Part shown: one piece after another, positions 11,754-26,783 of the stretch
How the letters are laid out: every line of letters begins with the position of its first letter
Numbering within the stretch: the first letter of the stretch is position 1
From: Ruminococcus albus 7 = DSM 20455
GTDB lineage: Bacteria > Bacillota > Clostridia > Oscillospirales > Ruminococcaceae
NCBI RefSeq assembly: GCF_000179635.2
Contig: NC_014833.1
Coordinates: forward strand, 600,001 to 632,000
DNA: 32,000 bases
Direction of reading: 5' to 3'
Made by a program: the position numbers and the translations under genes
The notes under the pieces: model-generated
What the model saw: only the letters and a program-made list of their open reading frames with translations
The model's database searches: none
What the model was told of the DNA's origin: nothing

Positions 11754-11782
11754 TTGACTAATGTACGCCTCCGTGTTATAAT
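11754..11782 (+). promoter_or_regulatory. Near-consensus promoter for the hyd/nfl/hyp cluster.
   Basis: TTGACT lies at 11754-11759 and TATAAT at 11777-11782, separated by 17 nt and about 100 nt upstream of the first gene. A 7-bp hairpin (11806-11812 / 11819-11825) sits in the leader. Confidence 0.65.
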
Positions 11783-11879
11783 GATACTGTTGATATTAAT
11801 AGTATAAGGCACAGTATCGTGCCTTTATAAAACATAATATTTTTCACGGTGACTGACACCGATAGAAAGGAAGATAGCT

Positions 11880-12125
11880 ATGCAGACAAGAGTAGCGGTT
11901 ATTTCTATCATTATTGAAGACGTCAGCTCTGTGGAAAGCATAAATTCCATACTGCACGAGTTCGGTGAATTCATATTCGGCAGGATGGGAGTGCCATACC
12001 GTGCCAAGGGCGTTAACATAATAAGTATCGCCATTGATGCACCGCAGGATAAGATAAATACCCTTGCGGGCAAGATAGGCAGATTAAACGGTGTTACTGC
12101 CAAGACGGTATATTCAACGGTCTGA
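11880..12125 (+). CDS. TM1266-family ACT-like small protein (putative iron-only hydrogenase system regulator).
   Basis: The 81-aa protein reads MQTRVAVISIIIED...SINSILHEFGEFIFGRMGVPYRAKGVNIISIAIDAP.DKINTLAGKIGRLNGV. This is the family known to be linked to hydE/F/G clusters. Confidence 0.75.
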   Translation: MQTRVAVISIIIEDVSSVESINSILHEFGEFIFGRMGVPYRAKGVNIISIAIDAPQDKINTLAGKIGRLNGVTAKTVYSTV

Positions 12126-12327
12126 CCCGGGATAAACGGGAAAGACCCCTTACAAAAAATATAAGCATAGGTTTCCTCCTGATGCCGAAAATTATTTTGA
12201 GGCAGAAGCAGAAAGACACAAGCGACCGCGGATAAATATCGGGGCGCGGCAGGATATGGGGTATATATACTTTATGTTTTGCGTGAGCTCACGGGATAAG
12301 TGTATCCGCAGGTCTTTATTGGCGTGT

Positions 12328-12375
12328 AAGCCCGTGTCCTCTGTTTCGGGGGATACGGGCTTTATTTATGCTTTT
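12328..12375 (+). terminator. Intrinsic terminator / attenuator hairpin in the hydF leader.
   Basis: A 12-bp stem pairs AAGCCCGTGTCC (12328-12339) with GGATACGGGCTT (12351-12362), with one G.U pair. It is followed by TATTTATGCTTTT and ends only about 30 nt before the hydF start. Confidence 0.6.
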
Positions 12376-12405
12376 CACATTATGAGCGAAAAGGAGAACT
12401 GGAAC

Positions 12406-13596
12406 ATGGGACTAAACGATACACCTTCGGGTGAGAGGGTGCACATAGGCTTTTTCGGACGCAGGAATGCAGGCAAATCAAGCGTGGTAAACGCTTTTAC
12501 AAATCAGGAGCTGGCGATAGTATCGGATACTCCGGGCACGACTACCGACCCTGTATATAAGGCGATGGAGCTTCTGCCGATGGGACCTGTAATGATAATT
12601 GACACCCCCGGTTATGATGATGAGGGTAAGCTTGGTGAACTCAGGGTCAGAAAGACCTCGGAGGTGCTGGGCAGAACAGACTGCGCTGTACTGGTGACCG
12701 ATTGTACAAGAGATCTTGATGAGAGCGAAAAGCAGCTGATAAAGCTGTTTGACAGCAGGCGCATACCATATGTCATAGCAAAGAATAAATCCGATCTTCT
12801 GGATGATATCCCTGCTGCAGATGAAAAAGAGATCTATGTCAGCGCACTTAATAATACTATGATACATGAGCTGCGCGAGAAAGTAGCTCAGCTTTCGGCA
12901 TACAAAGAGCAGAACGTTCCGCTTGTGGGCGACCTTATCGGTGAGGGCGGACTTGCAGTGCTTTGCATACCCATAGACAAGGCAGCACCCAAGGGCAGAT
13001 TGATACTTCCTCAGCAGCAGGTGATCCGTGACCTGCTGGAGCATGGTGCGGCAGCACTTACCTGCCGTGAGACCGAGCTCAAGAGTTTCCTGGAAAAGCT
13101 GAACCCAAAGCCCGATGCGGTAATAACCGACAGTCAGGTGTTTGCACGCGCGAATGCTGATACTCCGCCTGATATAAAGCTTACATCTTTTTCCATACTC
13201 ATGGCGAGATACAAGGGATTCCTTGCACCTGCTGTGCGCGGCGCAAAAGCGATAGACAGCCTTAAAAACGGCGACAGGATACTCATTTCCGAGGGCTGTA
13301 CTCACCACCGCCAGTGCGAGGATATCGGAACGGTGAAGCTGCCGAAGCTGCTGAAAAAATACACAGGCAAGGATTTCAGGCTGGAGTTTTCCTCAGGCAG
13401 GGAATTTCCCGATGACCTTACCGACTACGCACTTGTTATACACTGCGGAGGCTGTATGCTCAATGCAAGGGAGATGAGCAGCCGCATAATGACTGTTGAG
13501 GAAGCAGGTGTACCTGTTACCAATTACGGTATCGCCATAGCTTATATGAACGGTATCCTTGAAAGAAGTCTGGAGTTGATCCCCGATATTATGTGA
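12406..13596 (+). CDS. hydF: [FeFe]-hydrogenase H-cluster maturation GTPase HydF.
   Basis: GTPase motifs are present: G1 GRRNAGKSS, DTPG and NKSD. The C-terminal FeS motif is EGCTHH...IHCGGC. The ATG at 12406 follows AAGGAGA. The longer ORF from 12256 was rejected. Confidence 0.9.
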   Translation: MGLNDTPSGERVHIGFFGRRNAGKSSVVNAFTNQELAIVSDTPGTTTDPVYKAMELLPMGPVMIIDTPGYDDEGKLGELRVRKTSEVLGRTDCAVLVTDCTRDLDESEKQLIKLFDSRRIPYVIAKNKSDLLDDIPAADEKEIYVSALNNTMIHELREKVAQLSAYKEQNVPLVGDLIGEGGLAVLCIPIDKAAPKGRLILPQQQVIRDLLEHGAAALTCRETELKSFLEKLNPKPDAVITDSQVFARANADTPPDIKLTSFSILMARYKGFLAPAVRGAKAIDSLKNGDRILISEGCTHHRQCEDIGTVKLPKLLKKYTGKDFRLEFSSGREFPDDLTDYALVIHCGGCMLNAREMSSRIMTVEEAGVPVTNYGIAIAYMNGILERSLELIPDIM

Positions 13597-13607
13597 GGTG
13601 ATGTGAT

Positions 13608-14114
13608 ATGAGTGAAAAATTTGTATACGATAAGTCTTCACCCGATGCTGATAAGTATACCGAGGTGGATAAGTTCCTTCAGTTGACAGAACGCTACTGT
13701 AAAAAAGGCTTAGGTGCGATCGCAAGCAAAGTTGGTTCAAAGCTTGGTCTTAAAAACAGTTCCAGACCCTATTCTTCTTTGCAGCGAGCAGTGAAGATAA
13801 TCAATGCCGATGGCATCGAAGGCGTATATGATGATCTCATGCACTGCACACGCGTTGAGCGATGCGATATATTCATTGGTAAAAGCTATCTGTTCCGACA
13901 GAACAATTTCATGTGCCGCATTAAGGATATAAAAAAATGTTATATCCTTAAGGAAGAAAGCGGTGATGATATCCTTTACCATTGTTATGCGGATATCAGC
14001 GATGAAGCAGGAGATGAAACTCTTGAATTAAGAAAACTCAGTGCCCTGAAAGTACAGAGGCTGCTGCAGTTTGATGAGATAAGAAAGCTGATAGGCATAG
14101 AAGAACAGGAGTAG
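13608..14114 (+). CDS. Hypothetical 168-aa protein embedded between hydF and hydE.
   Basis: The ATG at 13608 follows GAGGTGA and lies 11 nt after the hydF stop. The gene is on the same strand as its neighbours. The protein has six Cys and matches no family I recognise. Confidence 0.6.
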   Translation: MSEKFVYDKSSPDADKYTEVDKFLQLTERYCKKGLGAIASKVGSKLGLKNSSRPYSSLQRAVKIINADGIEGVYDDLMHCTRVERCDIFIGKSYLFRQNNFMCRIKDIKKCYILKEESGDDILYHCYADISDEAGDETLELRKLSALKVQRLLQFDEIRKLIGIEEQE

Positions 14115-14157: not shown

Positions 14158-15195
14158 ATGAGCAAGGCTCTTATAGATAAGCTGAATAAAGAGAAGCATC
14201 TCGAAAAAGAAGAATGGGTGACCCTTTTATCTGGGTATACCGACGATGACAGGGCTTACGCCGCGGGTATCGCGCGTGAGATAAGTACCTCGCGTTTCGG
14301 AAATAAGATATTCATTCGCGGTATCGTGGAATTTTCAAACGTCTGTAAGAACGACTGCTACTACTGCGGAATAAGACGTTCCAATACCAACGTTCAGCGG
14401 TATCGGCTTACCCCCGATGAGATACTCGACTGCTGTGACGAGGGCTATGAACTTGGTTTCCGTACCTTTGTTTTGCAGAGCGGTGAGGATAAGAGCTATA
14501 CTAACGATACCCTCTGTGATATCGTCCGCAGGATAAAGGCAGCTCACCCCGACTGCGCTGTTACCCTTTCTCTCGGTGAACTGACCTATGAGGAATACAA
14601 GGCTTTACGCGAAGCAGGTGCTGACAGATATCTTCTGCGCCACGAAACAGCCGACAAAGCCCATTATGAGAAACTTCACCCCGCCGAGATGTCATGGGAT
14701 GACCGCATGGAATGTCTTAAATATCTGAAAGAACTGGGATACCAGACAGGTGCAGGCATCATGGTAGGTTCCCCCTATCAGACTATGGAGTGTATCGCTG
14801 AGGATATGCTTTTCTTTGAAAGCTTCAAACCCGAGATGATAGGCATAGGACCATTCCTGCCCCACAAGGATACGCCTTTCAGGGACGAACCCAAAGGCAG
14901 TTACGAATTGACACTTTTCCTGCTGAGTCTGTGCAGGATACTTCTCCCCGATGTTCTCCTGCCCGCAACTACCGCCCTCGGCACGATACGTCCCAACGGC
15001 AGGGAGGAAGGTGTAAAGGCAGGCGCTAACGTTATAATGCCCAACCTTTCCCCAACAGCGGTGAGAAAGAAATATATGCTTTACGATAACAAGATATGCA
15101 CAGGTGACGAAAGCGCACAGTGCCGCGGATGTCTTGAAATGAGAATGAAGTCCATCGGCTACGAGGTAGCTGTATCAAGAGGTGACCATATATGA
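14158..15195 (+). CDS. hydE: [FeFe]-hydrogenase maturation radical SAM enzyme HydE.
   Basis: The CX3CX2C motif is CKNDCYYC. The protein has a BioB-like fold and HydE-typical length (345 aa) and sequence (...FVLQSGED...GAGIMVGSPYQT...). Confidence 0.9.
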   Translation: MSKALIDKLNKEKHLEKEEWVTLLSGYTDDDRAYAAGIAREISTSRFGNKIFIRGIVEFSNVCKNDCYYCGIRRSNTNVQRYRLTPDEILDCCDEGYELGFRTFVLQSGEDKSYTNDTLCDIVRRIKAAHPDCAVTLSLGELTYEEYKALREAGADRYLLRHETADKAHYEKLHPAEMSWDDRMECLKYLKELGYQTGAGIMVGSPYQTMECIAEDMLFFESFKPEMIGIGPFLPHKDTPFRDEPKGSYELTLFLLSLCRILLPDVLLPATTALGTIRPNGREEGVKAGANVIMPNLSPTAVRKKYMLYDNKICTGDESAQCRGCLEMRMKSIGYEVAVSRGDHI

Positions 15196-15950
15196 TAAAA
15201 TTTGCTGTATACGGAAAAGGCGGCATAGGTAAATCCACTATCGCCTGCAATATCTCGGCGGCACTGGCTGCAAAAGGTCTTACCGTCATGCAGATAGGCT
15301 GTGACCCCAAGGCGGATTCAACATCTCTCCTCCACGGCGGCGACAGGATACCTACCGTATTGGATATGACCCGCAAAACAGGCGGCAAGTTCACCCTTGA
15401 CGATGTGGTCTTCAAGACCCCAAGCGGAGTATACTGCGTTGAAGCCGGCGGACCTGTCCCGGGACTGGGCTGTGCGGGCAGAGGTATAATCAATGCCCTG
15501 GAAAGCCTTGAAAAGCTGGGTGCTTATGAGGTATACAAGCCCGATGTTGTAGTCTACGATGTCCTCGGCGATGTGGTATGCGGAGGATTCTCTATGCCCA
15601 TGCGCAAGGGCTATGCTGATAAGATATTCGTTGTCTGTTCGGGTGAGAAAATGTCCAGATATGCGGCGGCAAATATCTGCATGGCTGTTGAGAATTTCAA
15701 GGGCAGAGGATACGCTTCCCTTGGCGGCATAATACTAAACCGCAGGGGAGTACCCGATGAAGACGAAGCGGCAGAGGAGCTTGCGGCTGATTTCAATACA
15801 TCTGTCATAGGTACTCTCGACCGCAGTGAGGATATACCTCTTGCGGAAGAAATGGGCAAAGCGATAGTGGCTTCCGCCCCCGAATGTGAAACTTCAAAAC
15901 AGCTGAAAGCAATAGCCGATGCGGTATACGCTATTTGCGGAGGTGAGTGA
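15192..15950 (+). CDS. NifH/BchL/CfbC-family ATPase, nitrogenase-like iron protein copy 1.
   Basis: The P-loop is GKGGIGKST and switch I is CDPKADST. Both cluster-ligand contexts are present: GCAGRG and DVVCGGF. The start overlaps the hydE stop (ATGA). Confidence 0.9.
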   Translation: MIKFAVYGKGGIGKSTIACNISAALAAKGLTVMQIGCDPKADSTSLLHGGDRIPTVLDMTRKTGGKFTLDDVVFKTPSGVYCVEAGGPVPGLGCAGRGIINALESLEKLGAYEVYKPDVVVYDVLGDVVCGGFSMPMRKGYADKIFVVCSGEKMSRYAAANICMAVENFKGRGYASLGGIILNRRGVPDEDEAAEELAADFNTSVIGTLDRSEDIPLAEEMGKAIVASAPECETSKQLKAIADAVYAICGGE

Positions 15951-15951
15951 T

Positions 15952-17265
15952 ATGCTCAGAAAAACAGAGCTTGACCGTCCACCCGTGATAAGGCTGGGCG
16001 ATGCGCCCCGCGGTGATTTCTTCACAAGCGGACTTGAATACAATCCACCTGCAAGGGGTGTATGGAACATAGTCCATACAGGTATGCTGATACCCGAAGC
16101 ACATGAGATATTCGCCTGTGCCCAGGGCTGTCTCCGCGGTGTTATCCTCACGGCGGCTGAAATGAATGCTCTTGACCGCATGAGCTGGATATCCGTTTCC
16201 GAGCAGGATATGTTCGACGGTACGCTGGAAAGCGATGTGGTTGACGGCGTGTGTGAAATAATCGAAGGTCTGCCTTACAGACCACGCGCTGTGCTTTTGT
16301 ATCTCAGCTGTATACACCTTTTTGCAGGGGTAGATTTCGATATCATAATACGGGACCTTTCAGAAAAATTTCCCGATATAGATTTTTCGGACTGCTATAT
16401 GACCCCTACCATGCGCAAGACCATCTCTCCCGATGCTAAAATGAGGATAAGACTTTACAATGGGCTGAAGCCCCTGCCAGTAGATGAACGCTCGGTGAAT
16501 ATCATCGGCAACGACCGTGCTACCGATGAAAACAGCGAACTTGTCCGCATAATAAGGGATAATGGTTTTACTCTGAGGGATATAACCTCATGCAGGACCT
16601 ACGATGAATATCTTGATATGGCAAAGGCGGCGGTGAATATCGCTTATCTGCCTACGGCGGCGATTGGCTGTAATGAATTATCCGAGCGGTTAGGCACAAA
16701 GGCTTTGTATCTGCCTAACAGCTTTGACTATTCCGAGATACGTGCGAACATCGCAAAACTATGTGAAACTCTCGGCGTACCATGCCCCGACCTTTCGCGT
16801 GAAGAAAAGCAGGCAGAGGACGCACTTTTCTCCGCAAAAAAAGCTTTGGGCGATACTCCCGTAGCTATCGACTTCACAGCGGTAACACAGCCCTTCTCTC
16901 TGGCGAAACTCCTTTGCGAAAAAGGCTTCAATGTGAAGTATATCATAAATGATGTTCTGGGCGAGGACGGCGCCGCATTTGATGCACTGAAAACTCTCGC
17001 TCCCGATATTGAGATATACTCGGCGGTTAATGTGAATATGCTGCATTTCCCCGAGGAAGACCATGAAAAAGTCATAGCCGTGGGTCAGAAAGCCGCACAT
17101 TACTTCAACACCGACTATTTCGTTAATATAGTCCAGAACGGCGGATATTACGGCTTTACAGGCATAGCTGAGATAGCACGCCTGATAGAAGAAGCGGCAA
17201 ACGCACCAAAGGACAGGCGGACTCTTATATCACACAAGGGTATCGGCTGTGAGAGCTGTTTATAA
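15952..17265 (+). CDS. Nitrogenase component-1-type oxidoreductase subunit, NifD/NifE/BchN-like, copy 1.
   Basis: It occupies the position after the H gene. Motifs include ACAQGC and LSCIHLFAGVDFD (like the TCxxxxIGDD context). The product is 437 aa. The ATG at 15952 follows GGAGGTGA. Confidence 0.7.
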   Translation: MLRKTELDRPPVIRLGDAPRGDFFTSGLEYNPPARGVWNIVHTGMLIPEAHEIFACAQGCLRGVILTAAEMNALDRMSWISVSEQDMFDGTLESDVVDGVCEIIEGLPYRPRAVLLYLSCIHLFAGVDFDIIIRDLSEKFPDIDFSDCYMTPTMRKTISPDAKMRIRLYNGLKPLPVDERSVNIIGNDRATDENSELVRIIRDNGFTLRDITSCRTYDEYLDMAKAAVNIAYLPTAAIGCNELSERLGTKALYLPNSFDYSEIRANIAKLCETLGVPCPDLSREEKQAEDALFSAKKALGDTPVAIDFTAVTQPFSLAKLLCEKGFNVKYIINDVLGEDGAAFDALKTLAPDIEIYSAVNVNMLHFPEEDHEKVIAVGQKAAHYFNTDYFVNIVQNGGYYGFTGIAEIARLIEEAANAPKDRRTLISHKGIGCESCL

Positions 17266-17329
17266 TTCATAATTCATAATTATTGGCATTGGCGATACAG
17301 TGTCAATGATCATGAAAAAGAGGTTTACT

Positions 17330-18529
17330 ATGAAAAATGTCAGTAAGATAATACCATGCTATGCGGCGGATACTTCGGGCGTATGTTCGGCGCTGTATGA
17401 GTTTGGCGGCATGATAGTCGTGCATGATGCATCGGGCTGCAATTCCACTTATTCAACCCACGATGAACCCCGCTGGTACGATATGCGCTCGGATATCTAT
17501 ATCTCCGCGCTTACCGAGACCGATGCTATCCTCGGCAACGATGAAAAGCTTATCGAGGATATAGTCTCAGCCGCTAAAGACCGTCAGCCCGCATTTATAG
17601 CGCTGTGCGGTTCACCCATGCCCATGATGACAGGCTTCGACTACGAAGCTGTGGCGCGGGATATTCAGGGATGGACCGGTATACCGACTTTCGGTCTGGC
17701 AACCAATGGTACACGTTCGTATATCAGCGGTGCAGGTATGGCGCTTGAAGCTATTGTCCGTGAGTTCGTACATGATATGCCCAAGGAAGATTTCGACGGC
17801 ATCGCCATAAATATCATAGGTGCGACCCCCCTTGATTTCGGTCTTACGGGGGCAGTTGAAAGCATGAAGAAGCTTTACAGCAGACCTAAGATGAAAGTCA
17901 TATCCTCCATAGGCATGGGCGGCACTCTCGATGAGATACGCAAAGCAGCCTCTGCAAATGTGAATCTCGTGGTATCCTACTGCGGGCTTCCTGCGGCGCG
18001 GTATATGGAAAAGGAATTCGGTATACCCTATATCTGCGGCGTTCCCCTGGGCGATGTTGATATGATACAGGCAGGTGCTCTCAGCAGTTTTATGTATGAA
18101 ACTGCCCATGACGGCATAAGCAGAATGATGGCGGCAATGTGCCGCGGCAGAGCAACCGACGAAAAAGCCGAGCGTCTTGTCATAGGCGAGGCTGTGCTTG
18201 CAGGGTCGATAGCCTTTGAATGGTCTATAATGACCCGCCATGCGGTAGATGTTATATGTCCCCCGGATATAGATGCAGAACTTTCTCCCGATAAAAAGGA
18301 TATGCCCCTATATGCCGAGGAAGACATCAAGGCATATATCAAAGACCGCGGCATTAAGGAAGTCGTGGCAGACCCCCTGTACAAATACATCATACCCGAG
18401 GGATGCAGGCTTATCGAACTGCCCCACTTCGCTTTCTCGGGCAGATGCTTTGCAAAGGATATGAAAGATCCTACGTGTAATGACTTTCTGGATGATCTTG
18501 TACTCGCAATAAATAAGAAAAATGAATGA
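17330..18529 (+). CDS. Nitrogenase component-1-type oxidoreductase subunit, NifK/NifN/BchB-like, copy 1.
   Basis: Motifs include VHDASGC, DEPRWY and ALCGSPMPMMTGFDYE. It is a paralogue of 20588..21613. The ATG at 17330 follows AAGAGG. Confidence 0.7.
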   Translation: MKNVSKIIPCYAADTSGVCSALYEFGGMIVVHDASGCNSTYSTHDEPRWYDMRSDIYISALTETDAILGNDEKLIEDIVSAAKDRQPAFIALCGSPMPMMTGFDYEAVARDIQGWTGIPTFGLATNGTRSYISGAGMALEAIVREFVHDMPKEDFDGIAINIIGATPLDFGLTGAVESMKKLYSRPKMKVISSIGMGGTLDEIRKAASANVNLVVSYCGLPAARYMEKEFGIPYICGVPLGDVDMIQAGALSSFMYETAHDGISRMMAAMCRGRATDEKAERLVIGEAVLAGSIAFEWSIMTRHAVDVICPPDIDAELSPDKKDMPLYAEEDIKAYIKDRGIKEVVADPLYKYIIPEGCRLIELPHFAFSGRCFAKDMKDPTCNDFLDDLVLAINKKNE

Positions 18530-20591: not shown

Positions 20592-21613
20592 AAAAGTTTT
20601 TGAGATATATCTCTCCCCTTGCCCCCGATGATTCAGGTGCCTGTTCGGTGCTTTACGAACTTGGTGGTATCACCGTTATATGTGATGCGGGCGGATGCGC
20701 GGGCAATGTCTGCGGCTTTGATGAACCCCGCTGGTTCACTAAAAAATCAGCGCTGTTCAGTGCGGGACTCCGTGATATGGACGCTATCCTCGGCAGAGAT
20801 GACCGCCTTGTTGCAAAGCTTGCCCTTGCACAGCAGCAGCTTGAAAGGGACTTCACCGCCATCGTCGGCACACCTGTCCCCGCAGTCATTGCCACCGACT
20901 ATAAAGCCCTTGAACGCATGGCTGAAAAGAAAACAGGCGTACCCTGTATCACTGTTCAGACCGACGGCACAAAGCTTTACGATAAAGGCGAGGAAGAAGC
21001 CTACCTGCGTTTGTTCAAAACATTTGCAAAGGAAAAACTCCCCACCCGGAAAGGCACTGCCGCCGTCATAGGCGCTACACCTCTCGATACGGGCTTCATC
21101 ACCGCCGATACCATAGTATCGCAGATAAAGGCTGAGGGCTTTGAGGAAGTCAAATGCATCGGCTTCGACAGCGGACTTGACGAAGTAAAAAACATCTCCC
21201 GCTTTGAGAAGATATTCGTCATATCGCCTGCTGGCATCAGGGCAGGAAATTACCTTAAAGAAAATTTCTCCCTTGATGTTGAAGTGCACGGCTGTCCCCT
21301 GCCAAAGGAGTATACCGATAAGCTGAAAGACCTAAGAACAGGCGGCAGAACTCTTATCATACACCAGCAGATGACAGCAAACGCTGTCCGCGATATCATA
21401 GGCGATTCGACCTGCGGAACGTTCTTCATGCTTGATAAGACCGCCGCACAGGAAGGCGACTTCCACATAAAGGACGAGGAAGACCTCGCCGAAAAGGCAA
21501 AGGGCTTCGACCTTATAATAGCCGATATCAGCCTTAAACGCGCCCTCCCCGAGTTTAAGGGCGAATGGTTCGACCTGCCCCACTTTGCAGTTTCGGGCAG
21601 AACTTTCCAATAA
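20588..21613 (+). CDS. Nitrogenase component-1-type oxidoreductase subunit, NifK/NifN/BchB-like, copy 2.
   Basis: Motifs include ICDAGGCAGNVCGFDEPRWF and a C-terminal DLPHFAVSGR (copy 1 has ELPHFAFSGR). The start overlaps the upstream gene (ATGA). The product is 341 aa. Confidence 0.7.
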   Translation: MKKFLRYISPLAPDDSGACSVLYELGGITVICDAGGCAGNVCGFDEPRWFTKKSALFSAGLRDMDAILGRDDRLVAKLALAQQQLERDFTAIVGTPVPAVIATDYKALERMAEKKTGVPCITVQTDGTKLYDKGEEEAYLRLFKTFAKEKLPTRKGTAAVIGATPLDTGFITADTIVSQIKAEGFEEVKCIGFDSGLDEVKNISRFEKIFVISPAGIRAGNYLKENFSLDVEVHGCPLPKEYTDKLKDLRTGGRTLIIHQQMTANAVRDIIGDSTCGTFFMLDKTAAQEGDFHIKDEEDLAEKAKGFDLIIADISLKRALPEFKGEWFDLPHFAVSGRTFQ

Positions 21614-21626
21614 CAGATAGAAGAAG

Positions 21627-23939
21627 GTGAGCAACATAAAAACTGTCAATATACGTGTTTTCGGCATAGTACAGGGCGTGGGTTTCCGACCTTTCACCGC
21701 TGTCACCGCCGAAGAACTCGGCATCAGCGGAACAGTGGCGAATAAGGGTTCCTATGTGGATATCTATGCCACAGGTGAAGAAGCTTCTCTTGCAGCCTTT
21801 GCCGACAGGATAAGACATGATCCGCCCGAACGCGCCATGGTGCTTGAGGTGGAAGTCACCGATATTGAATATACCGAATTTTCGGGCTTTGAGATAATTG
21901 AGAGCGAAAAGGAGATGGGAGATATATTCGTTTCCCCCGATATCGCCACCTGCCCGAAATGCCGTGCTGAACTGTTCGATAAAACGGACAGAAGATATCT
22001 GCACCCCTTTATAAACTGTACCCAGTGCGGTCCGCGTCTGACTATACTGGAGTCTATGCCCTATGACCGCGAACGCACTACCATGAAAGAACACCCCATG
22101 TGTGAAAAGTGTTCTTCAGAGTACCACGCCCCCGCAACACGCCGCTATGACGCACAGCCCGTGTGCTGTAATGAATGCGGACCCGAGGTCTATATAGTCG
22201 GCACCGATATAAAGGGCGGTGAAGCTATAACACATCTGCGCCGCGCTATAATGGAAGGTAAGATAGCGGCTGTAAAAGGCATAGGTGGTTTCCACCTTTG
22301 CTGTGATGCCCACAACGAGGAAGCCGTATCGCGCCTTCGCGGACTTAAAAAACGTCCCGCAAAGCCCTTTGCAGTCATGATGCGTGATATGGATACTGTG
22401 CGCAGACAGTGCCATGTCAGGGACGGTCAGGAAGAATACCTAACAGGCTGGCAGAAGCCCATAATGCTTCTTAAAAAGCGCAGCTGCTGCACTCTCAGCG
22501 AGAAGATAGCCCCCGACAATACCACCGTGGGCGTTATGCTTCCCTATGCCCCTGTGCAGATGCTATTATTCGATTATCCCGATGATGTTGATATGACAGA
22601 CTGCCTTGTAATGACAAGCGGCAACGTCAGCGGCGCACCAATATGCCGCAGTGACGAAGATGCCCTCAAAGAGATAGGCAGCTTCTGTGACCTCATGCTT
22701 TCCCACAACAGGAAGATACTACTGCGTGCAGACGACAGCGTGTGCGACTGGCTTTTCGATAAGCCCTATATGATACGGCGCTCCCGCGGTTTCGCGCCCC
22801 TGCCCGTCATGCTGAAAAACAAGGCTGACAAACAGGTGCTTGCCGTAGGCGGCGAGCTGAAAAACAGCTTCTGCATAGCAAGAGGCGACCTGCTTTATCC
22901 CTCGCCCTACGTGGGAGATATGGCGGATATCCGCACCGTAAAAGCCCTGGAAGAAAGCACCGAGAGAATGTGCGGGCTTCTCGAAACGACCCCCGAGGTC
23001 ATCGTATGCGATACCCACCCCAAGTACAACACCGTCCGCGTGGCTGAGGATATCGCAGAAAAACGGGGCATACCCCTGATAAAGGTACAGCATCACTACG
23101 CCCATATACTTTCCTGCATGGCTGAAAACGGCTTTGACGGAAAGGTGATCGGTGTCAGCTTCGACGGCACAGGCTACGGCGATGACGGCACTATATGGGG
23201 CGGCGAATTTCTCCTCTGCGATTACCGCGGCTATAAAAGGGTCGGAAGTATACGTCCATTTATGCAGACAGGCGGCGACCTCTCATCAAAGGAGGGCTGG
23301 CGCATAGCCTCGGCACTTATACGCGATGCTTTCGGCGACGGCGGAGAAGTCCTCTGTCAGCGTCTTGGCATATGCGACGGCATGGAGTATAAACTGCAAA
23401 AGGCTATGGCTGAAAAGGGTCTCAACTCTGTTAAGTCCACAAGCTGCGGCAGACTTTTCGATGCCGTGTCCGCTATACTCGGTATAAAGAGGACATCCAC
23501 TTTTGAGGGCGAAGCTTCCGTAGCCCTTATGTGCGAAGCTGAGCGCTGTTTAGCAAAGCGCCCCGAGATATCTGAGAATTACCGTACTCCCGAAAAGCTG
23601 ATAAAGTATCAGGACGGTTTTGTAACTCTCTGTACAATGGCACTTGCGGCTGATATAGCCGAGCGTAAACTCGCCTGCTGTCAGCCCGATGTGCTTGCCT
23701 ATACCTTCCATGCGGTGCTTGCTGATATGGTAACAGCCGCCTGCGAAAAGATAAGCGAGGACACAGGCATAAAGACCGTTGCACTCAGCGGCGGAGTTTT
23801 CCAGAACCGTCTGCTGACAAAGCTGTGCCACGAAAGGCTTACAGCCAAAGGTTTCACCGTACTTCTGCACAGCCTGATACCGCCCAACGACGGCGGCATA
23901 GCTCTGGGACAGGCAGCGTATGGTATATATAATTCATAA
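21627..23939 (+). CDS. hypF: Carbamoyltransferase HypF.
   Basis: An acylphosphatase domain (VQGVGFRP) is followed by two zinc-finger pairs (CPKC...CTQCGPR, CEKC...CNECGP), a YrdC-like domain and a Kae1-like domain. The product is 770 aa with a GTG start. Confidence 0.95.
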   Translation: MSNIKTVNIRVFGIVQGVGFRPFTAVTAEELGISGTVANKGSYVDIYATGEEASLAAFADRIRHDPPERAMVLEVEVTDIEYTEFSGFEIIESEKEMGDIFVSPDIATCPKCRAELFDKTDRRYLHPFINCTQCGPRLTILESMPYDRERTTMKEHPMCEKCSSEYHAPATRRYDAQPVCCNECGPEVYIVGTDIKGGEAITHLRRAIMEGKIAAVKGIGGFHLCCDAHNEEAVSRLRGLKKRPAKPFAVMMRDMDTVRRQCHVRDGQEEYLTGWQKPIMLLKKRSCCTLSEKIAPDNTTVGVMLPYAPVQMLLFDYPDDVDMTDCLVMTSGNVSGAPICRSDEDALKEIGSFCDLMLSHNRKILLRADDSVCDWLFDKPYMIRRSRGFAPLPVMLKNKADKQVLAVGGELKNSFCIARGDLLYPSPYVGDMADIRTVKALEESTERMCGLLETTPEVIVCDTHPKYNTVRVAEDIAEKRGIPLIKVQHHYAHILSCMAENGFDGKVIGVSFDGTGYGDDGTIWGGEFLLCDYRGYKRVGSIRPFMQTGGDLSSKEGWRIASALIRDAFGDGGEVLCQRLGICDGMEYKLQKAMAEKGLNSVKSTSCGRLFDAVSAILGIKRTSTFEGEASVALMCEAERCLAKRPEISENYRTPEKLIKYQDGFVTLCTMALAADIAERKLACCQPDVLAYTFHAVLADMVTAACEKISEDTGIKTVALSGGVFQNRLLTKLCHERLTAKGFTVLLHSLIPPNDGGIALGQAAYGIYNS

Positions 23940-24413
23940 TTAATAATTGCGCGGCGGGGTTTTGTGAATGGCAAAGCTTTCATGCTGCGGACGACAGTAT
24001 GTTAAGGACCAATTTGACAACAGCAAGCTACATTTATCGGCTTGCTGCAATAAACGTAAAGAACCCAAACAAAACAATATGACCCTCACAGCAAGGCAAG
24101 AGCCCACTGCCGACGCAGTCGCAGTTAGCGCCCTCTTGACCGAGCACTGGGGGTATGGGGGGTTCCCCCATAAGGAATCATTATCATACCACAACAAAGC
24201 TTAATTTGAAGCCCAAAATAAAGTAATATAAACCAACAGCAAGGCAAGAGCCTGAGCGCCCCTTGAGCATAGTGAGCTGCGGGAGCGTAGCGACCAAAGC
24301 GAACGCCGCTCAAGCCCTAACCGGGCGCGAAGGTCTTGCCGCGCACAACATCATCAAAGCTGATGTTTGGAGTATGAGGGGCTTTGCCCCTCATTTAGAA
24401 TAGGAGGATAAAT
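23940..24413. repeat. Non-coding spacer with degenerate direct repeats and GC-rich palindromes.
   Basis: A roughly 45-nt unit, (G)CCCAAA.AAA..AATAT.A.C..ACAGCAAGGCAAGAGCC, occurs at 24063-24105 and 24211-24253. CAAAGCT occurs three times. Hairpins lie at 24021-24047, 24154-24172 and 24375-24392. Confidence 0.6.
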
Positions 24414-24623
24414 ATGTGTGTTGGATTATCTGCAAAAGTAGTAAATGTTAAGGACGGTACAGCCCTTATAGATGCAAACGGCGCAAAGCGCGAGGTCAGC
24501 GCCGATCTGCTGGAAGATCTCGAACCAGGTGATTATGTAATGGTGCACGCAGGTGTGGCTATCGCAAAGATCACCGAGAGCGACGAGGACGAAGCATTTG
24601 ATGTAATGGAGGGTCTGCTGTGA
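24414..24623 (+). CDS. hypC: Hydrogenase maturation chaperone HypC.
   Basis: The N-terminus is MCVG, carrying the essential Cys2. The protein is a 69-aa OB-fold and matches HypC/HupF-family sequence throughout. Confidence 0.9.
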   Translation: MCVGLSAKVVNVKDGTALIDANGAKREVSADLLEDLEPGDYVMVHAGVAIAKITESDEDEAFDVMEGLL

Positions 24624-25666
24624 ACGAACAGGCTAAAAAGGCAAGGGATATAATCGTTAACTATAAGGGAAGACCCCTGCGTATAATGGAGGTCTGCGGC
24701 ACCCATACCCATGAGATATTCAAACTGGGTCTGCGCAAGCTGCTGCCCGAAAATGTTGAACTCATCTCGGGACCCGGATGTCCCGTATGCGTAACTCCCG
24801 TGGGATTTATAGATGAAGCTATATGGCTGGCACTGGAGAAAGGCTGTGTTATAACCACATTCGGTGACCTTATCCGTGTACCGGGTACGGAGATGTCTCT
24901 TGCAGGTGCAAGGGCTAAGGGCGCACAGGTACGCCCCGTTTATTCCCCGCTGGATGCAGTTGAAATGGCAAGACAGAACCCCGATGAACAGATAGTTTTC
25001 TTAGCTGTCGGCTTTGAGACAACTACCCCCTCTGCCTGTCTTGCGGCTGAAACAGCAAAGAAGGAGGGTCTCACTAACTTCTCTCTGCTGACCGCAAACA
25101 AGACCATGCCCAATGCCTATGCGGCACTTGAAGGCAGTGCTGATGCTTTCCTCTATCCGGGTCATGTAAACGCGATAACAGGTACAGCTATATGCGAGGA
25201 ACTTAAAGCCAAAGGCGTATCGGGTGTTATCGCAGGCTTTACCGCAAGCGAACTTCTCACCGCCCTTGCAGTGATACTGAAGAACGCCGAAAAGGACGAG
25301 CCTTTCTTTGTCAACTGCTACCCCCGCGTAGTTAAGCCCGAGGGCAATCCGCCCGCTCGGAAGCTTATTGAAAAGGTAATGGAGCCCTGCGATACCGAAT
25401 GGCGCGGTCTTGGCGTTATCCCCATGTCGGGCATGAAACTCCGCGATGAGTACGCCGATTTCGATGCAAGAAAGAAGTACGCTATGCCCGAGATAAAGGG
25501 CAAGCCCAATCCTGCCTGCCGCTGTGGAGAAGTCCTGCAAGGCAAATGCAAACCCTGTGACTGCAAGGTATTCGGCAAGGTATGTACCCCCGAACACCCC
25601 GTAGGTGCCTGCATGGTATCTGATGAGGGTGCCTGTGCGGCTTATTATCAGTACGGCGGAGTATAA
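24620..25666 (+). CDS. hypD: Hydrogenase maturation factor HypD.
   Basis: Motifs include CGTHTH, GPGCPVCV and C-terminal Cys-rich motifs (...PACRCG...CKPCDC...GACMVS.EGACAAYY). The GTG start overlaps the hypC stop. Confidence 0.95.
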   Translation: MNEQAKKARDIIVNYKGRPLRIMEVCGTHTHEIFKLGLRKLLPENVELISGPGCPVCVTPVGFIDEAIWLALEKGCVITTFGDLIRVPGTEMSLAGARAKGAQVRPVYSPLDAVEMARQNPDEQIVFLAVGFETTTPSACLAAETAKKEGLTNFSLLTANKTMPNAYAALEGSADAFLYPGHVNAITGTAICEELKAKGVSGVIAGFTASELLTALAVILKNAEKDEPFFVNCYPRVVKPEGNPPARKLIEKVMEPCDTEWRGLGVIPMSGMKLRDEYADFDARKKYAMPEIKGKPNPACRCGEVLQGKCKPCDCKVFGKVCTPEHPVGACMVSDEGACAAYYQYGGV

Positions 25667-25731
25667 GGCTGTATCTTAATAAACGAAATAACATTTCAGC
25701 GCCTGCGGGCGCACAAAGGAGTAAATACAAT

Positions 25732-26739
25732 ATGTCAGAAAAAACAGTTACCCTCGCCCACGGTGCGGGCGGAAAGCAGACCTCGGAACTTATCGACAGA
25801 GTTTTCAAGGCACATTTCTCAAATCCTCAGTTCACAGCAGATGATGCCGCTGTGCTGAATATCGGCGACGGCAGACTTGCCATGTCCACCGACGGCTTCA
25901 TCGTTTCCCCTTTTGAATTCAACGGCGGAAACATCGGCAAACTTTCCATCTGCGGAACAGTCAACGACCTTTCCTGCATGGGTGCGAAGCCTCTGTACCT
26001 CACCTGTGCTTTCGTCATCGAAGAGGGATTCCCACTTGACAAGCTTGAAGAGATTGCCGCTTCTATGGAAAAGACCGCGGCTGAGGCTGGTGTCAAGATA
26101 GTCGCAGGCGATACCAAGGTAGCAGGCAAGGGTCAGGTGGATAAGATATTCATCACCACCACAGGCATAGGCAGGATAATGGATAACGCCGATACCTCGG
26201 GCACATACGCTAAGCCCGGCGATGCTGTCATAGTTACGGGCGATGTGGGCAGACACGGCTGTACCATACTTCTCGCCCGCGATGAATACGGCATAGATGC
26301 CAATGTTGACAGCGACTGCGCACCTCTCTGGGGCACAGTTGAAAGCCTGTATACCGTCACCAATGATATCCACACTATCCGTGACGCTACCCGCGGCGGC
26401 GTTGGTACAGTCCTCTATGAGATAGCCGAGCAGAGCAATGTAGGTGTTCGCCTGAACGCAGAAGATATCCCCGTTGACCCAGCTGTCAAGGGCGTTTGTG
26501 GTATGCTGGGTCTTGAACCCCTCTACCTCGCCTGTGAGGGCAGACTTGTAATAATCGCTCCCAAGGACAAAGCACCTGCACTTGTTGAAAAGCTCCGCGA
26601 GGGCAAGTATTCAAAGAATGCCGCTATCATCGGTGAGATAACCGCCGAAAACGCAGGCAGAGTAGTCATGGAGACCGAGATAGGCGCCCAGACCATGCTC
26701 CCTCAGCCCGGCGGCGAACTTCTGCCGCGCATATGCTGA
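25732..26739 (+). CDS. hypE: Hydrogenase maturation carbamoyl dehydratase HypE.
   Basis: The protein has a PurM-like fold. Its N-terminus is LAHGAGG and its C-terminus is the PRIC motif. Confidence 0.95.
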   Translation: MSEKTVTLAHGAGGKQTSELIDRVFKAHFSNPQFTADDAAVLNIGDGRLAMSTDGFIVSPFEFNGGNIGKLSICGTVNDLSCMGAKPLYLTCAFVIEEGFPLDKLEEIAASMEKTAAEAGVKIVAGDTKVAGKGQVDKIFITTTGIGRIMDNADTSGTYAKPGDAVIVTGDVGRHGCTILLARDEYGIDANVDSDCAPLWGTVESLYTVTNDIHTIRDATRGGVGTVLYEIAEQSNVGVRLNAEDIPVDPAVKGVCGMLGLEPLYLACEGRLVIIAPKDKAPALVEKLREGKYSKNAAIIGEITAENAGRVVMETEIGAQTMLPQPGGELLPRIC

Positions 26740-26748
26740 TAATAAAAA

Positions 26749-26783
26749 CTGCGTCCGCGGAATTTCCGCAGACGCAGTTTTTT
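26749..26783. terminator. Bidirectional rho-independent terminator (hypE / dut).
   Basis: A 13-bp stem with one mismatch pairs CTGCGTCCGCGGA (26749-26761) with TCCGCAGACGCAG (26765-26777). T6 lies downstream and A5 upstream. Confidence 0.85.

Follow-up and report, generated by a model that had tools for sequence, protein, structure and literature searches.

The Hyp proteins of [NiFe]-hydrogenase maturation produce Fe(CN)2CO, and the HydG synthon is Fe(CO)2CN. To our knowledge, every [FeFe]-hydrogenase studied can be matured by HydE, HydF and HydG alone, and the substrates of all characterised group IV nitrogenase-like enzymes are organic. Loci already described are those of Coprococcus catus, with two linked NifHEN-like copies adjoining hydrogenase maturation genes, and Dorea longicatena, also with two linked NifHEN-like copies; one sentence was devoted to this neighbourhood, and a role in metallocluster assembly was proposed (Dos Santos et al. 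2012, PMC3464626). The preliminary description of the locus analysed here, according to which no system of this composition had been described, was thus too strong.

The locus is contained in a 32,000-nt stretch of the Ruminococcus albus 7 genome (NC_014833.1, positions 600,001 to 632,000; hereafter, the window). It comprises 14 co-directional genes, in the order TM1266-type regulator, hydF, orf168, hydE, nflH1-D1-K1, nflH2-D2-K2 and hypF-C-D-E (thirteen had been counted initially; co-direction, the single promoter and the single terminator stand):

11754..11782, + strand: sigma-70-type promoter 5' of the regulator gene (TTGACT-17-TATAAT, extended -10 TG, 11/12 matches)
11880..12125, + strand: TM1266-like small ACT-type protein ("iron-only hydrogenase system putative regulator"; PF21699, E 6e-31; TIGR03959)
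12126..12405, + strand: structured leader of 280 nt from the regulator gene to hydF (fold statistics)
12179..12208, + strand: conserved leader RNA motif, CUGA-[4 nt]-GAAA...UUGA-[4 nt]-GAAG
12328..12362, + strand: terminator/attenuator hairpin of 16 bp followed by a T run (fold)
12406..13596, + strand: hydF, [FeFe]-hydrogenase maturation GTPase/scaffold (TIGR03918; HydF dimer and tetramer domains)
13608..14114, + strand: orf168, no Pfam or NCBIfam match, restricted to the R. albus group
14158..15195, + strand: hydE, radical-SAM [FeFe]-hydrogenase maturase (TIGR03956)
15192..15950, + strand: nflH1, NifH-like ATPase/[4Fe-4S] protein (PF00142, E 2e-84 to 1e-83)
15952..17265, + strand: nflD1, nitrogenase component-1-like subunit (PF00148)
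17330..18529, + strand: nflK1, partner subunit of NflD1 (PF00148)
18542..19306, + strand: nflH2, second NifH-like ATPase (PF00142, E 1e-89 to 7e-89)
19299..20591, + strand: nflD2, component-1-like subunit, always directly 5' (via NflK2) of hypF (PF00148)
20588..21613, + strand: nflK2, partner subunit of NflD2 (PF00148, E 9e-12)
21627..23939, + strand: hypF, carbamoyltransferase, source of the CN ligand (TIGR00143, all domains present)
23940..24413, + strand: lineage-specific hypF-hypC spacer of 474 nt (compared with the four closest relatives checked)
24414..24623, + strand: hypC, Fe(CN)2CO chaperone (TIGR00074)
24620..25666, + strand: hypD, Fe-S scaffold for Fe(CN)2CO assembly (TIGR00075)
25732..26739, + strand: hypE, ATP-dependent dehydratase carrying thiocyanate (TIGR02124)
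26744..26783, strand (.): bidirectional intrinsic terminator common to the cluster end and the convergent dut gene (sequence and fold)

The gene identities assigned previously are all borne out by Pfam and NCBIfam profile matches, with orf168 belonging to no family, and the junctions reported then agree with the coordinates: ATGA overlaps at hydE/nflH1 and nflD2/nflK2, a GTGA overlap at hypC/hypD, an 8-nt overlap of nflH2 and nflD2, short gaps of 1 nt (nflH1-nflD1), 12 nt (nflK1-nflH2) and 13 nt (nflK2-hypF), and larger gaps of 280, 43, 64, 474 and 65 nt. The promoter is indeed near consensus, and in related loci the 300 nt before the TM1266 gene again contain TATAAT, TTGACA or TTGACT; the terminator at the cluster end is as strong as claimed (-25.5 kcal/mol, z = -7.4). 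The remainder of the window is occupied by IS elements, transposases, a serine recombinase, a MATE pump, dut, a U32 peptidase, ZapA, GNAT and citrate synthase. The inventory of the whole window also upholds the absences noted earlier, namely, of hydA, hydG, hypA/B, an endopeptidase and nifB/E/N/V. Matches to orf168 in tblastn come from R. albus-like loci only, where 2-5 tandem paralogous copies occur.

The way into the operon leads past the TM1266-type regulator gene (present in 47 of 50 related loci; 111 bits against TIGR03959, cut-off 61), an RNA motif of the leader that shows covariation, and a terminator hairpin. The 280 nt between the regulator gene and hydF, correctly measured before, are not a plain gap but a structured leader (MFE -96 kcal/mol, z = -4.4, a stability equalled by 0 of 200 shuffles) that contains a hairpin and a conserved RNA motif; the leader matches no Rfam family. 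The motif, found in about 60 related operon leaders, is a hairpin with a covarying 4-bp helix between two tandem G.A internal loops. Pairing of this helix in alignment A4 holds in 99.3% of cells, compared with 24-51% in slid controls, and 40 double-change cells were observed vs 12.3 in shuffles (0 of 500 shuffles reach the observed value). The terminator/attenuator hairpin (-31.5 kcal/mol, z = -6.5) has an equivalent with a T run in the leaders of most related loci, and no promoter-like site was found in the window between this hairpin and hydF.

Published RNA-seq of R. albus 7 reveals a tenfold step-down after the regulator gene: Rumal_0542, the orthologue of the TM1266-like gene, has a transcript level about ten times that of the genes after it, transcription is flat from hydF to hypE (30-125 normalised units), and Rumal_0544, the counterpart of orf168, is transcribed at operon level. 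The locus is not one operon without qualification, given the conserved terminator/attenuator after the regulator gene and the drop in transcript level. In the same published data, the module is weakly expressed and does not respond when a partner organism removes H2; its expression looks more like that of an accessory function than of a major catabolic enzyme.

Relatives of NflD2 are encoded in at least 597 species genomes of Ruminococcus and other Oscillospiraceae, Lachnospiraceae, Clostridium, Synergistaceae and Lentisphaeria (phyla Bacillota, Synergistota and Lentisphaerota), and the loci were compared across the best 80 of these. Within the best 80, 38 of 42 full-length loci have all ten nfl and hyp genes arranged as in the window; trio 1 occurs in 65 of 66 loci, hypC with hypD in 54 of 54, and hypFCDE in 48 of 54. 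The flanks are unrelated, with no flank gene family in more than 8 of the 80 loci. That the gene order is conserved beyond chance and recurs in 80 independent genomes is confirmed. The adjacency of NflD2K2 (often fused in relatives) to hypFCDE holds to about 40% identity: relatives at 40-54% identity (L088, L089, L092, L093, L094 and L095) keep D2K2 followed by hypF-C-D(-E), though other parts change. L092 encodes one NflH for two D-K pairs, and L092, L093 and L095 carry neither a hyd gene nor TM1266; in L022 and L029, hypE is located between nflD1 and nflK1. One relative (L091, 47% identity) does not adjoin hyp genes, and the next-closest relatives (L086, 36% identity) lie beside ABC transporters and NifH, without hyp genes. 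No substrate-pathway genes (tetrapyrrole, sulfur, transporter) recur in the module or flanks of the best 80 loci. The invariant core is NflD2K2 followed directly by hypF-hypC-hypD-hypE, usually accompanied by NflD1K1 and one or two NifH-like ATPases.

Homologous trios, then, normally have hyp neighbours, and the original suggestion that the modules act together survives this comparison for nfl and hyp (38/42 in order, three phyla, unrelated flanks), but not for hydE and hydF as parts of the core. The latter genes, found inside the cluster in 33 and 24 of 50 loci, respectively, are frequent yet dispensable. Both proteins are well above the family cut-offs (HydF, 549 bits against TIGR03918, cut-off 326; HydE, 571 bits against TIGR03956, cut-off 255), and the HydF CxH...HCxxC cluster motif and HydE CX3CX2C are invariant in the orthologue alignments. 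Neither the window nor the flanks of the best 80 loci contain hydG. The TM1266 regulator, hydE/hydF and the hydA directly upstream in one relative (L089) fit a role in [FeFe]-hydrogenase maturation as well as they fit the system proposed below. The presence of hydE and hydF in R. albus can be explained by its ordinary [FeFe]-hydrogenases, of which it has four types (Greening et al. 2019, PMC6776011).

Each of the four Hyp proteins scores above the cut-off of its NCBIfam equivalog or subfamily model: HypF, 750 bits (TIGR00143, cut-off 466); HypC, 61.5 bits (TIGR00074, 48); HypD, 413 bits (TIGR00075, 193); and HypE, 426 bits (TIGR02124, 252). Cys2 and His45 of HypC are invariant, and nearly all of 63 orthologues begin with MCVGL(S/A)A; HypD has both CGxHxH and GPGCPVC in 66 of 66 orthologues, and HypE ends in LPRIC in 57 of 57. 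The set is complete, with every catalytic motif present, and on these grounds is predicted to be functional. The hypF-hypC spacing is 52-96 nt in the four closest relatives checked vs 474 nt here; this spacer contains a 17-nt direct repeat 148 nt apart, 13-nt imperfect inverted ends, and the doubtful orf78 (23968-24204), which matches identical contigs only. Genes for HypA, HypB and the protease are absent from the window and the best 80 loci. R. albus 7, 8 and SY3 encode no [NiFe] large subunit of any subgroup (Greening et al. 2019, PMC6776011, Table S2), so the Hyp proteins have no classical target, and there are no host [NiFe] loci by which hypFCDE could be explained.

The P-loop and both cluster cysteines, which are invariant, are retained in NflH1 (Cys94 and Cys130) and NflH2 (Cys95 and Cys131). 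The two proteins are 52% identical; the best PDB match of NflH2 is C. pasteurianum NifH (E 4e-74), and NflH1 is below the cut-offs of the nifH (296 vs 394) and CfbC (293 vs 402) families. NflD1K1 is a second D-K pair, anciently diverged from NflD2K2 (23% identity for the D and 28% for the K subunits). The D/K proteins have more invariant Cys and His residues than one bridging cluster needs; conserved positions are, in NflD1, seven Cys (C56, C60, C120, C148, C214, C433 and C436), H42, H51 and H122, including the CxxC of a C-terminal G-C-x-S-C tail that is disordered in the AF2 model (pLDDT 85); in NflK1, C19, H32, C37, H44, C93 and H366; in NflD2, C69, C70, C126, C129, C142, C224, H29 and H393; and in NflK2, C32, C37, C42, H259 and H332. 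NflD2 has no equivalent of the cofactor-ligating NifD Cys275 (NifE Cys250), and neither do DPOR and CfbD. By Foldseek, NflD1 is equally distant from NifEN, NifDK, Mar and DPOR, and NflK2 has no match among PDB sequences. The D/K proteins are distant from Nif, NifEN, Mar, CfbD and DPOR and fall inside no characterised clade, including Mar and CfbD, membership in which would have undone the initial interpretation.

We tentatively favour, with somewhat less than even confidence, the view that the cluster is one instance of a self-contained module, shared horizontally, whose products make a CO/CN-ligated iron centre on nitrogenase-like proteins and put it to use. A somewhat unlikely alternative, in essence what Dos Santos et al. 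2012 (PMC3464626) suggested, is an additional or substitute [FeFe]-hydrogenase maturation line that replaces or supplements HydG, with the Nfl proteins being maturases like NifEN and NifH rather than enzymes. HypFCDE would give Fe-bound CN/CO; NflH-driven D-K scaffolds would remodel or reduce this, or else convert CO2 to CO, and HydE/HydF would finish the 2Fe subcluster. Besides the metallocluster-assembly role already proposed, such a line would accommodate the first gene, an equivalog named for the iron-only hydrogenase system, the frequency of hydE and hydF, the lack of hydG in the window and in the flanks of the best 80 loci, the four [FeFe]-hydrogenase types of R. albus and the low constitutive expression, which is typical of maturases; furthermore, [FeFe]-hydrogenase large and small subunit genes head the tightly packed string in L089, and a HydS-like gene is located just downstream in four loci. 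However, HydE, HydF and HydG are enough for the [FeFe]-hydrogenases studied, the Hyp product differs from the HydG synthon, and several module variants (L092, L093 and L095) have neither a hyd gene nor TM1266.

It is improbable that the Nfl trios are ATP-dependent reductases comparable to Mar, CfbCD or DPOR that act on an organic compound or another small molecule, with the Hyp proteins in non-classical service (carbamoylation, thiocyanate or cyanide transfer, or iron delivery) and not making an Fe(CN)2CO cofactor. The substrates of characterised group IV enzymes, the ABC transporters and NifH beside the hyp-less next-closest relatives, and the missing Cys275 equivalent are consistent with such reductases, but all four Hyp proteins are kept with every motif for the full Fe(CN)2CO pathway, a single chemical service would fit poorly because HypC and HypD would be needless, and no tetrapyrrole, sulfur or transporter gene recurs in the module or flanks across the best 80 loci. 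Mere juxtaposition of [FeFe] maturases, an unrelated nitrogenase-like reductase and [NiFe]-type maturases under one promoter, without shared function, is strongly disfavoured and hardly credible: the variable hydE/hydF, explicable by the host [FeFe]-hydrogenases, the sizeable internal gaps and weak internal promoter-like sites would allow it, but not the order kept across three phyla despite unrelated flanks, the start/stop codon overlaps at nfl junctions, the D2K2-hypF adjacency still present at 40% identity, hypE moved inside trio 1, or a host without a [NiFe] enzyme.

Within the favoured reading, we lean towards a new ATP-dependent organometallic enzyme, with the Nfl proteins themselves using the centre, since no other proteins accompany the Hyp proteins invariably. 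The weak expression, unchanged by H2 removal, and the relative without adjoining hyp genes (L091) count against this reading. The occurrence of hyp genes together with nitrogenase-like genes, without a [NiFe]-hydrogenase, points to an uncharacterised enzyme system with a carbonyl/cyanide iron cofactor, in a module common to hundreds of gut anaerobes, R. albus itself being a rumen bacterium. HydE (in two thirds of the modules), HydF (in half) and the TM1266 regulator may tie the product to H2 or [FeFe]-hydrogenase-type chemistry. HypF and HypE would derive cyanide from carbamoyl phosphate, and HypC-HypD would assemble an Fe(CN)2(CO)-type unit after the model of [NiFe]-hydrogenase maturation. 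There, the unit goes to the hydrogenase large subunit, whereas here the unit, or its ligands, would be delivered to NflD2K2 as the putative recipient. NflH would couple ATP hydrolysis to the supply of low-potential electrons, the part that NifH plays for NifEN and NifDK, and the two Nfl D-K pairs may parallel NifEN and NifDK, in that the cofactor would be assembled on one pair and, once complete, reside in the other.

The ORF listing and the Pfam/NCBIfam scans identify 14 co-directional genes in the window cluster, in which two trios of nitrogenase-like genes (nflH1-D1-K1 and nflH2-D2-K2, each encoding a NifH-like ATPase and D and K subunits) are embedded among hydrogenase maturation genes. 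The preliminary description had recognized this as one string, but counted 13 genes; the overlaps and gaps that it reported between the genes all agree with the coordinates.

Genes of the module, window positions
11880-12125, + strand: small regulator of the TM1266 family (Pfam/NCBIfam)
12406-13596, + strand: HydF (NCBIfam, above the curated cut-off)
13608-14114, + strand: orf168 (no known family)
14158-15195, + strand: HydE (NCBIfam, above the curated cut-off)
15192-18529, + strand: NflH1, NflD1 and NflK1 (PF00142 for NflH1; all below the Nif, CfbC/D, BchL/X and DPOR equivalog cut-offs)
18542-21613, + strand: NflH2, NflD2 and NflK2 (PF00142 for NflH2; all below the Nif, CfbC/D, BchL/X and DPOR equivalog cut-offs)
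21627-26739, + strand: HypF, HypC, HypD and HypE (all four above the NCBIfam cut-offs)

The near-consensus promoter proposed at 11754-11782 agrees with the consensus in 11 of its 12 bases and carries an extended -10 element, and the strong terminator proposed at the end of the cluster corresponds to a hairpin of -25.5 kcal/mol (z = -7.4). Domain scans of the window also agree with the earlier statement that it contains no hydrogenase structural gene, HydG, HypA/B, endopeptidase or NifB/E/N/V. The remaining window content consists of IS elements and genes for a serine recombinase, a MATE pump, dut, a U32 peptidase, ZapA, a GNAT protein and citrate synthase. The two trios are old paralogues, with 52% identity between H1 and H2, 23% between D1 and D2, and 28% between K1 and K2. 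The window NflD2 is 99% identical to a protein of Ruminococcus albus SY3 and 82% identical to the R. albus 7 counterpart; contigs identical to the window sequence are found in several sequencing runs.

The module lies at the border of a patch of mobile elements: positions 1-10000 are dense in them (DUF772 transposase, IS3-type integrase and IS1595 transposase, along with a large serine recombinase and a sigma-70 region-4 protein), and G+C falls to 0.30-0.31 at 4-7 kb. The 474-nt spacer between hypF and hypC (23940-24413) is particular to the strain lineage of the window, the spacer measuring 52-96 nt in the four closest relatives checked. Within it, a 17-nt direct repeat recurs at a distance of 148 nt; it also has imperfect inverted ends of 13 nt and a doubtful ORF of 78 codons, and resembles the remnant of a small insertion. 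This ORF, orf78, was ruled out as a module gene: it matches identical contigs only, and the spacer is lineage-specific. The occurrence of orf168 is confined to the R. albus group; four related loci (L005, L006, L009 and L082) carry 2 to 5 divergent tandem copies of it between hydF and hydE, and Rumal_0544, its counterpart in R. albus 7, is transcribed together with the operon.

A pattern scan with the NflD2 alignment over one genome per GTDB species found relatives in at least 597 genomes. Of these loci, the 80 best (61-94% identity; related loci are denoted L0xx) were compared with their 10-kb flanks by tblastn with the window proteins, gene counts being taken only among loci long enough to judge. 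Their hosts belong to three phyla and include Ruminococcus and other Oscillospiraceae, Lachnospiraceae, two Clostridium species, Synergistaceae and Lentisphaeria/Victivallales. By tblastn, 65 of 66 loci have trio 1, all 54 have hypC and hypD, 48 of 54 have the complete hypFCDE set, and 47 of 50 have the TM1266 gene; hydE and hydF are found in 33 and 24 of 50 loci, respectively. All ten nfl and hyp genes keep the window order in 38 of the 42 full-length loci. No gene family of the flanks occurs in more than 8 of the 80 loci, and none of these families is HydG, HydA or a [NiFe] subunit; the module therefore starts at the regulator and stops at hypE. In two loci (L022 and L029), hypE is placed between nflD1 and nflK1, which is a reshuffling inside the module, not a loss from it.

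Some Oscillospiraceae loci (L017, L023, L034, L038 and L041) have extra co-directional genes between the module genes, in real sequence and not N runs; these encode a GNAT acetyltransferase, a methyltransferase and a nitroreductase-like protein. Four loci, among them L035 and L037, encode a sensory-type [FeFe]-hydrogenase-like protein directly downstream of hypE, with a ferredoxin domain at the N-terminus, an H-cluster domain, and a coiled-coil or signalling region at the C-terminus.

When 1.84 billion cluster representatives were searched exhaustively with HMMER, 185 clusters scored at E < 1e-30, many of them D-K fusions of 770-1000 residues. Among representatives at 40-54% identity for which contigs were available, D2K2 (separate or fused) is followed directly by hypF-hypC-hypD(-hypE), with the other neighbours varying; the exception is L091 (47% identity), which is solitary and away from hyp genes. 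Locus L092 encodes a single NflH, D2K2, HypFCDE, and then D1 and K1, without hyd genes; L093 and L095 are minimal versions; L094 adds a HydE-like radical-SAM gene and L088 adds HydF. At L089 1653-18138 (40% identity, D2 and K2 fused), the full set starts with the two structural genes (large and small subunit) of an [FeFe]-hydrogenase, in the tightly packed order hydA(L)-hydA(S)-TM1266-hydE-hydF-nflH1-D1-K1-nflH2-D2K2-hypF-C-D-E, with no hydG. In the more distant L086 (36% identity), the neighbours are an ABC transporter and NifH, and there are no hyp genes.

Given this adjacency of D2K2 and hyp genes in variable company, the invariant core consists of NflD2K2 and HypFCDE. Almost every module also has NflH and the second D-K pair, whereas TM1266, HydE and HydF are frequent accessories. 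The module is thus conserved and mobile, with Nfl and Hyp as its constant part. The nfl trios normally have hyp neighbours, both in the 80 loci and in relatives down to approximately 40% identity, as the preliminary description had anticipated. Its proposal that hyd, nfl and hyp genes form one unit holds for the link between nfl and hyp, but not for hydE and hydF as fixed members, given their presence in 33/50 and 24/50 loci.

The Hyp set is complete, with every catalytic motif kept. HypF, HypC, HypD and HypE score 750, 61.5, 413 and 426 bits against their NCBIfam models, each above the cut-off. Cys2 and His45 of HypC are invariant among the orthologues, HypD retains CGxHxH and GPGCPVC in all 66 orthologues, and HypE ends in LPRIC in all 57. 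HydE (571 against a cut-off of 255) and HydF (549 against 326) are likewise NCBIfam equivalogs, with the CX3CX2C motif of HydE and the CxH...HCxxC motif of HydF invariant among orthologues. HydG was detected neither in the window by domain scans nor, as a HydG-like radical-SAM protein, in the flanks of the 80 loci by phmmer with HydE.

The usual N-terminal motif of HypC is MC(I/L/V)G(I/V)P, and classical HypC/HybG have a proline at position 6. The N-terminus of the module HypC (24414-24443 in the window, and nearly all of 63 orthologues) reads MCVGL(S/A)A(K/R)VV and does not have the position-6 proline. Judging from the sequence, this N-terminus may mark a different client.

The published HydDB-based screen, on which the absence of [NiFe]-hydrogenases from R. 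albus rests, found none of any of the 17 subgroups in strains 7, 8 and SY3 (Greening et al. 2019, PMC6776011 Table S2). The [FeFe]-hydrogenases of these strains belong to groups A3 (with HydB), B, C2 and C3 (PMC6776011 Table S2). By this inventory, hydE and hydF have ordinary clients in the genome and hypFCDE have none; in particular, R. albus contains no [NiFe] large subunit that would account for hypFCDE, a possibility against which the preliminary description had asked its proposal to be checked (PMC6776011 Table S2). In a survey of acetogenic clostridia, hypCDEF without hypAB were taken as incomplete [NiFe] maturation (PMC9431212).

The NflH proteins are clear members of the NifH family, with an N-terminal GKGGIGKS P-loop, PF00142 matches at E 1e-83 (NflH1) and 1e-89 (NflH2), NifH as the best PDB match (E 4e-74), and the [4Fe-4S] cysteines Cys94/130 and Cys95/131 invariant in 67-76 orthologues. 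They fall short of the equivalog cut-offs for nifH (296-315 against 394) and CfbC (NF033200; 293-301 against 402). The D and K proteins are far more remote, scoring 19-72 bits against the NCBIfam NifD/K/E/N equivalogs (cut-offs 427-654) and 19.6 bits against the CfbD model TIGR03282 (cut-off 268). Sequence searches against solved structures reach NifE at E 1e-10 to 5e-5 and Mar (9fmg, 9d9u) at about E 1e-4 to 2e-3; NflK2 has no match among the PDB sequences, and NflD1 matches nothing at E <= 0.001 with a profile and only NifE, at E 5e-5, with a single sequence. An AlphaFold model predicts the component-1 fold for NflD1 (pLDDT 85, pTM 0.86). Foldseek places this model at TM 0.55-0.67 and 12-18% identity, equidistant from NifEN, the D and K subunits of Nif/Vnf/Anf, Mar and DPOR; the identity to Mar is 13-14%, no better than that to Nif or DPOR. 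The PDB searches, Foldseek and NCBIfam scores are all remote, placing the D/K proteins outside Mar, CfbD, DPOR and Nif, where assignment to a characterized clade would have gone against the preliminary description.

By motif, counterparts of NifD Cys88 and Cys154 are present in NflD2. It lacks a cysteine at the Cys275/Cys250 cofactor position, its NLVINAEA aligning to NMMVCSKA of NifE. Across 67-79 orthologues, the invariant cysteines and histidines are C56, C60, C120, C148, C214, a C-terminal G-C-x-S-C tail, H42, H51 and H122 in D1; C19, H32, C37, H44, C93 and H366 in K1; C69, C70, C126, C129, C142, C224, H29 and H393 in D2; and C32, C37, C42, H259 and H332 in K2. Counted from the alignments, these residues exceed the need of one bridging cluster in the D-K pairs.

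The orthologous locus of R. albus 7 is Rumal_0542-0556 (PMC6776011 Table S7), followed by dut, U32 peptidase and GNAT genes, like the window module. In the RNA-seq data for this strain, each gene from hydF to hypE reads 31-125 normalized units, and the locus does not respond to co-culture with an H2 consumer (PMC6776011 Table S7). Between Rumal_0542 and Rumal_0543-0556, the published values drop approximately tenfold, exactly at the hairpin at 12328-12362. Transcription is therefore even from hydF to hypE, at roughly one tenth of the level of the first gene. No promoter-like site was found between this hairpin and hydF, indicating that hydF-hypE are read through from the upstream promoter. The original proposal of one operon has to be qualified by the conserved terminator or attenuator hairpin and the tenfold step-down after the regulator gene. 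The genes of a complete Hyp pathway that has no [NiFe] client in the host are thus transcribed, behind a putative attenuator.

Elsewhere in R. albus 7, outside the window, Rumal_0520-0524 include a second, separate nitrogenase-like D/K pair (PMC6776011 Table S7). Genes for a LysR regulator and an ABC transporter of the NMT1/THI5 type adjoin this pair, whose expression in replicate cultures varies approximately thirtyfold. Another NifH-like gene, Rumal_2437, listed as NifH for R. albus 7 (PMC6776011), was rejected as a module gene, as it belongs to a different locus from Rumal_0542-0556.

The 280-nt leader between the regulator gene and hydF (12126-12405) is structured (-96 kcal/mol, z = -4.4) and ends in a terminator-like element, a 16-bp hairpin with a T run at 12328-12362 (-31.5 kcal/mol, z = -6.5); similar hairpins with T runs are found in most related leaders. 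Upstream of the hairpin, at 12179-12208 (+ strand), lies a compact RNA motif, CUGA-N4-GAAA...UUGA-N4'-GAAG, that recurs in about 60 related operon leaders from three phyla. In a 37-sequence alignment, the 4-bp N4/N4' helix pairs in 99.3% of cells, compared with 24-51% in slid controls, and shows 40 double-change cells against 12.3 in shuffles, the observed value being reached in 0 of 500. The fold predicted for the window copy has two tandem G.A internal loops flanking this helix. In most lineages, the motif lies after the TM1266 gene; in Lachnospiraceae and L089 it lies before that gene, and three loci (L024, L070 and L084) have it without the gene; it is therefore part of the operon leader, not of the regulator gene. 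No Rfam family matched at the gathering score across the whole window, and 11600-12450 gave only chance-level matches (E 0.3-0.6, <18 bits). From these sequence features, we read the leader as a probable attenuator, riboswitch-like or protein-bound, and the motif may be a new cis-regulatory element.

Three other readings of the leader were discarded. A GGATAA triplet repeat considered as a protein-binding array is not conserved in other loci; an outer helix, P0, predicted around the motif in the window copy has no single register that pairs consistently across loci; and the hammerhead-like CUGAUG...GAAA has neither a stem II nor an Rfam match.

Our favoured, tentatively held reading is that the Nfl proteins are the end users of the Hyp product; we would put its chances a little short of even. 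HypFCDE would assemble an Fe(CN)2CO-type unit for NflD2K2, or supply it with the ligands of that unit, with NflH providing ATP-coupled electrons and the second D-K pair taking the NifEN-versus-NifDK role; HydE, HydF and TM1266 would connect the product to H-cluster-type chemistry. The fuller claim, that the Nfl D-K proteins hold a hydrogenase-type Fe-CO/CN organometallic cofactor made by dedicated HypFCDE, with HydE/HydF in many lineages, and so constitute a new class of CO/CN-iron enzymes, is possible but doubtful. If true, the catalyst would be an ATP-driven redox enzyme of nitrogenase-like build, equipped with a NifEN-like scaffold pair of its own and a new control element in the leader RNA, and it would be common among anaerobes of the rumen and gut without [NiFe]-hydrogenase.

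The main competing explanation is that the module is a maturase line for [FeFe]-hydrogenases, replacing or supplementing HydG. The TM1266 gene, hydE and hydF, the constant lack of hydG from the module, and hydA at the module head in L089 all argue for it; even so, we consider it rather unlikely. That the Hyp proteins give some non-cofactor service is less likely than the maturase line, and we judge it improbable. Mere juxtaposition of the genes, also less likely than the maturase line, is very improbable. The module itself is real and widespread, a variant of nitrogenase-like systems whose link to CO/CN-iron cofactor biosynthesis is plausible.

Outside the three hydrogenase classes, no biological Fe-CO/CN chemistry is known, and HypCDEF have a single known client. 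Here, complete HypFCDE occur in organisms without that client, locked beside nitrogenase-like proteins, in at least 80 sampled genomes of three phyla. Among genomic hints at a fourth CO/CN-iron enzyme, or else at a second way of making the [FeFe] H-cluster, the module is the clearest known to us. In both cases, the two great systems for assembling organometallic and Fe-S cofactors would be joined, and the result would bear on the idea that nitrogenase descended from maturase-like ancestors. The hosts rank among the main producers of H2 in the rumen and the human gut, and the NifH-like genes of the module are now scored as 'nitrogenase' in H2/N2 surveys such as PMC6776011. The question of a CO/CN-iron cofactor is directly testable.

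The preliminary description knew of no described system with this composition, a view that goes too far, because the same kind of cluster was remarked on in 2012 (PMC3464626). Dos Santos et al. (2012, BMC Genomics 13:162, PMC3464626) noted a linked pair of NifHEN-like copies in Coprococcus catus and in Dorea longicatena, and NifHEN-like genes adjoining hydrogenase maturation genes in Coprococcus catus (strain GD/7) as well as further Firmicutes. The authors pointed out that these proteins have no FeMo-co ligands and few conserved cysteines, and suggested a role in metallocluster assembly (PMC3464626). The neighbourhood is therefore not a new sighting. The likeness, drawn by description, lies in the two linked NifH-E-N-like copies adjoining maturation genes. 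Theirs is a genomic remark of one sentence that leaves out which Hyp and Hyd proteins are involved, the TM1266 regulator and the leader RNA, and says nothing of carriers outside Firmicutes, of the [NiFe]-less hosts or of the core of D2K2 followed by hypFCDE. Beyond it, full-text literature searches found no functional work on such modules. What is new here is that the arrangement stays invariant in three phyla, that D2K2 and Hyp form its core, that the host is [NiFe]-less and that hydE/hydF are optional, together with the expression profile and the leader RNA.

With Mar (MarBHDK) and CfbCD, the module shares the nitrogenase-like, ATP-dependent two-component architecture and its occurrence in anaerobes. 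Unlike Mar, it has no MarB/NifB-like gene, its sole radical-SAM gene being hydE; unlike CfbCD, which has a single homomeric D subunit, it has distinct D and K subunits and scores below the CfbC/CfbD cut-offs; and no sulfur or tetrapyrrole genes lie near it. The resemblance to NifH, NifDK and NifEN comprises the NifH-like ATPase with its P-loop and two cluster cysteines, the three-domain component-1 fold and the two paralogous D/K-type heterodimers per operon, a single NflH being able to serve two pairs, as in L092. The Nfl D/K proteins are, however, only 12-18% identical to any Nif, D2 lacks the Cys275 equivalent, NifB, NifV, NifX and NifQ are missing, and the adjoining cofactor genes are those of Hyp, not Nif.

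On the side of the maturases, the module has in common with [NiFe] maturation all four HypCDEF proteins, the C-terminal Cys cluster of HypD, the PRIC end of HypE and the four-domain HypF, but in the window and the 80 related loci it includes no large or small subunit, HypA/B or endopeptidase. With the HydE/HydF/HydG pathway, it shares canonical HydE and HydF and the TM1266-family gene at the head of the operon; in contrast to that pathway, it lacks HydG wherever examined, HydE and HydF are optional, and the string continues with six nitrogenase-like and four hyp genes.
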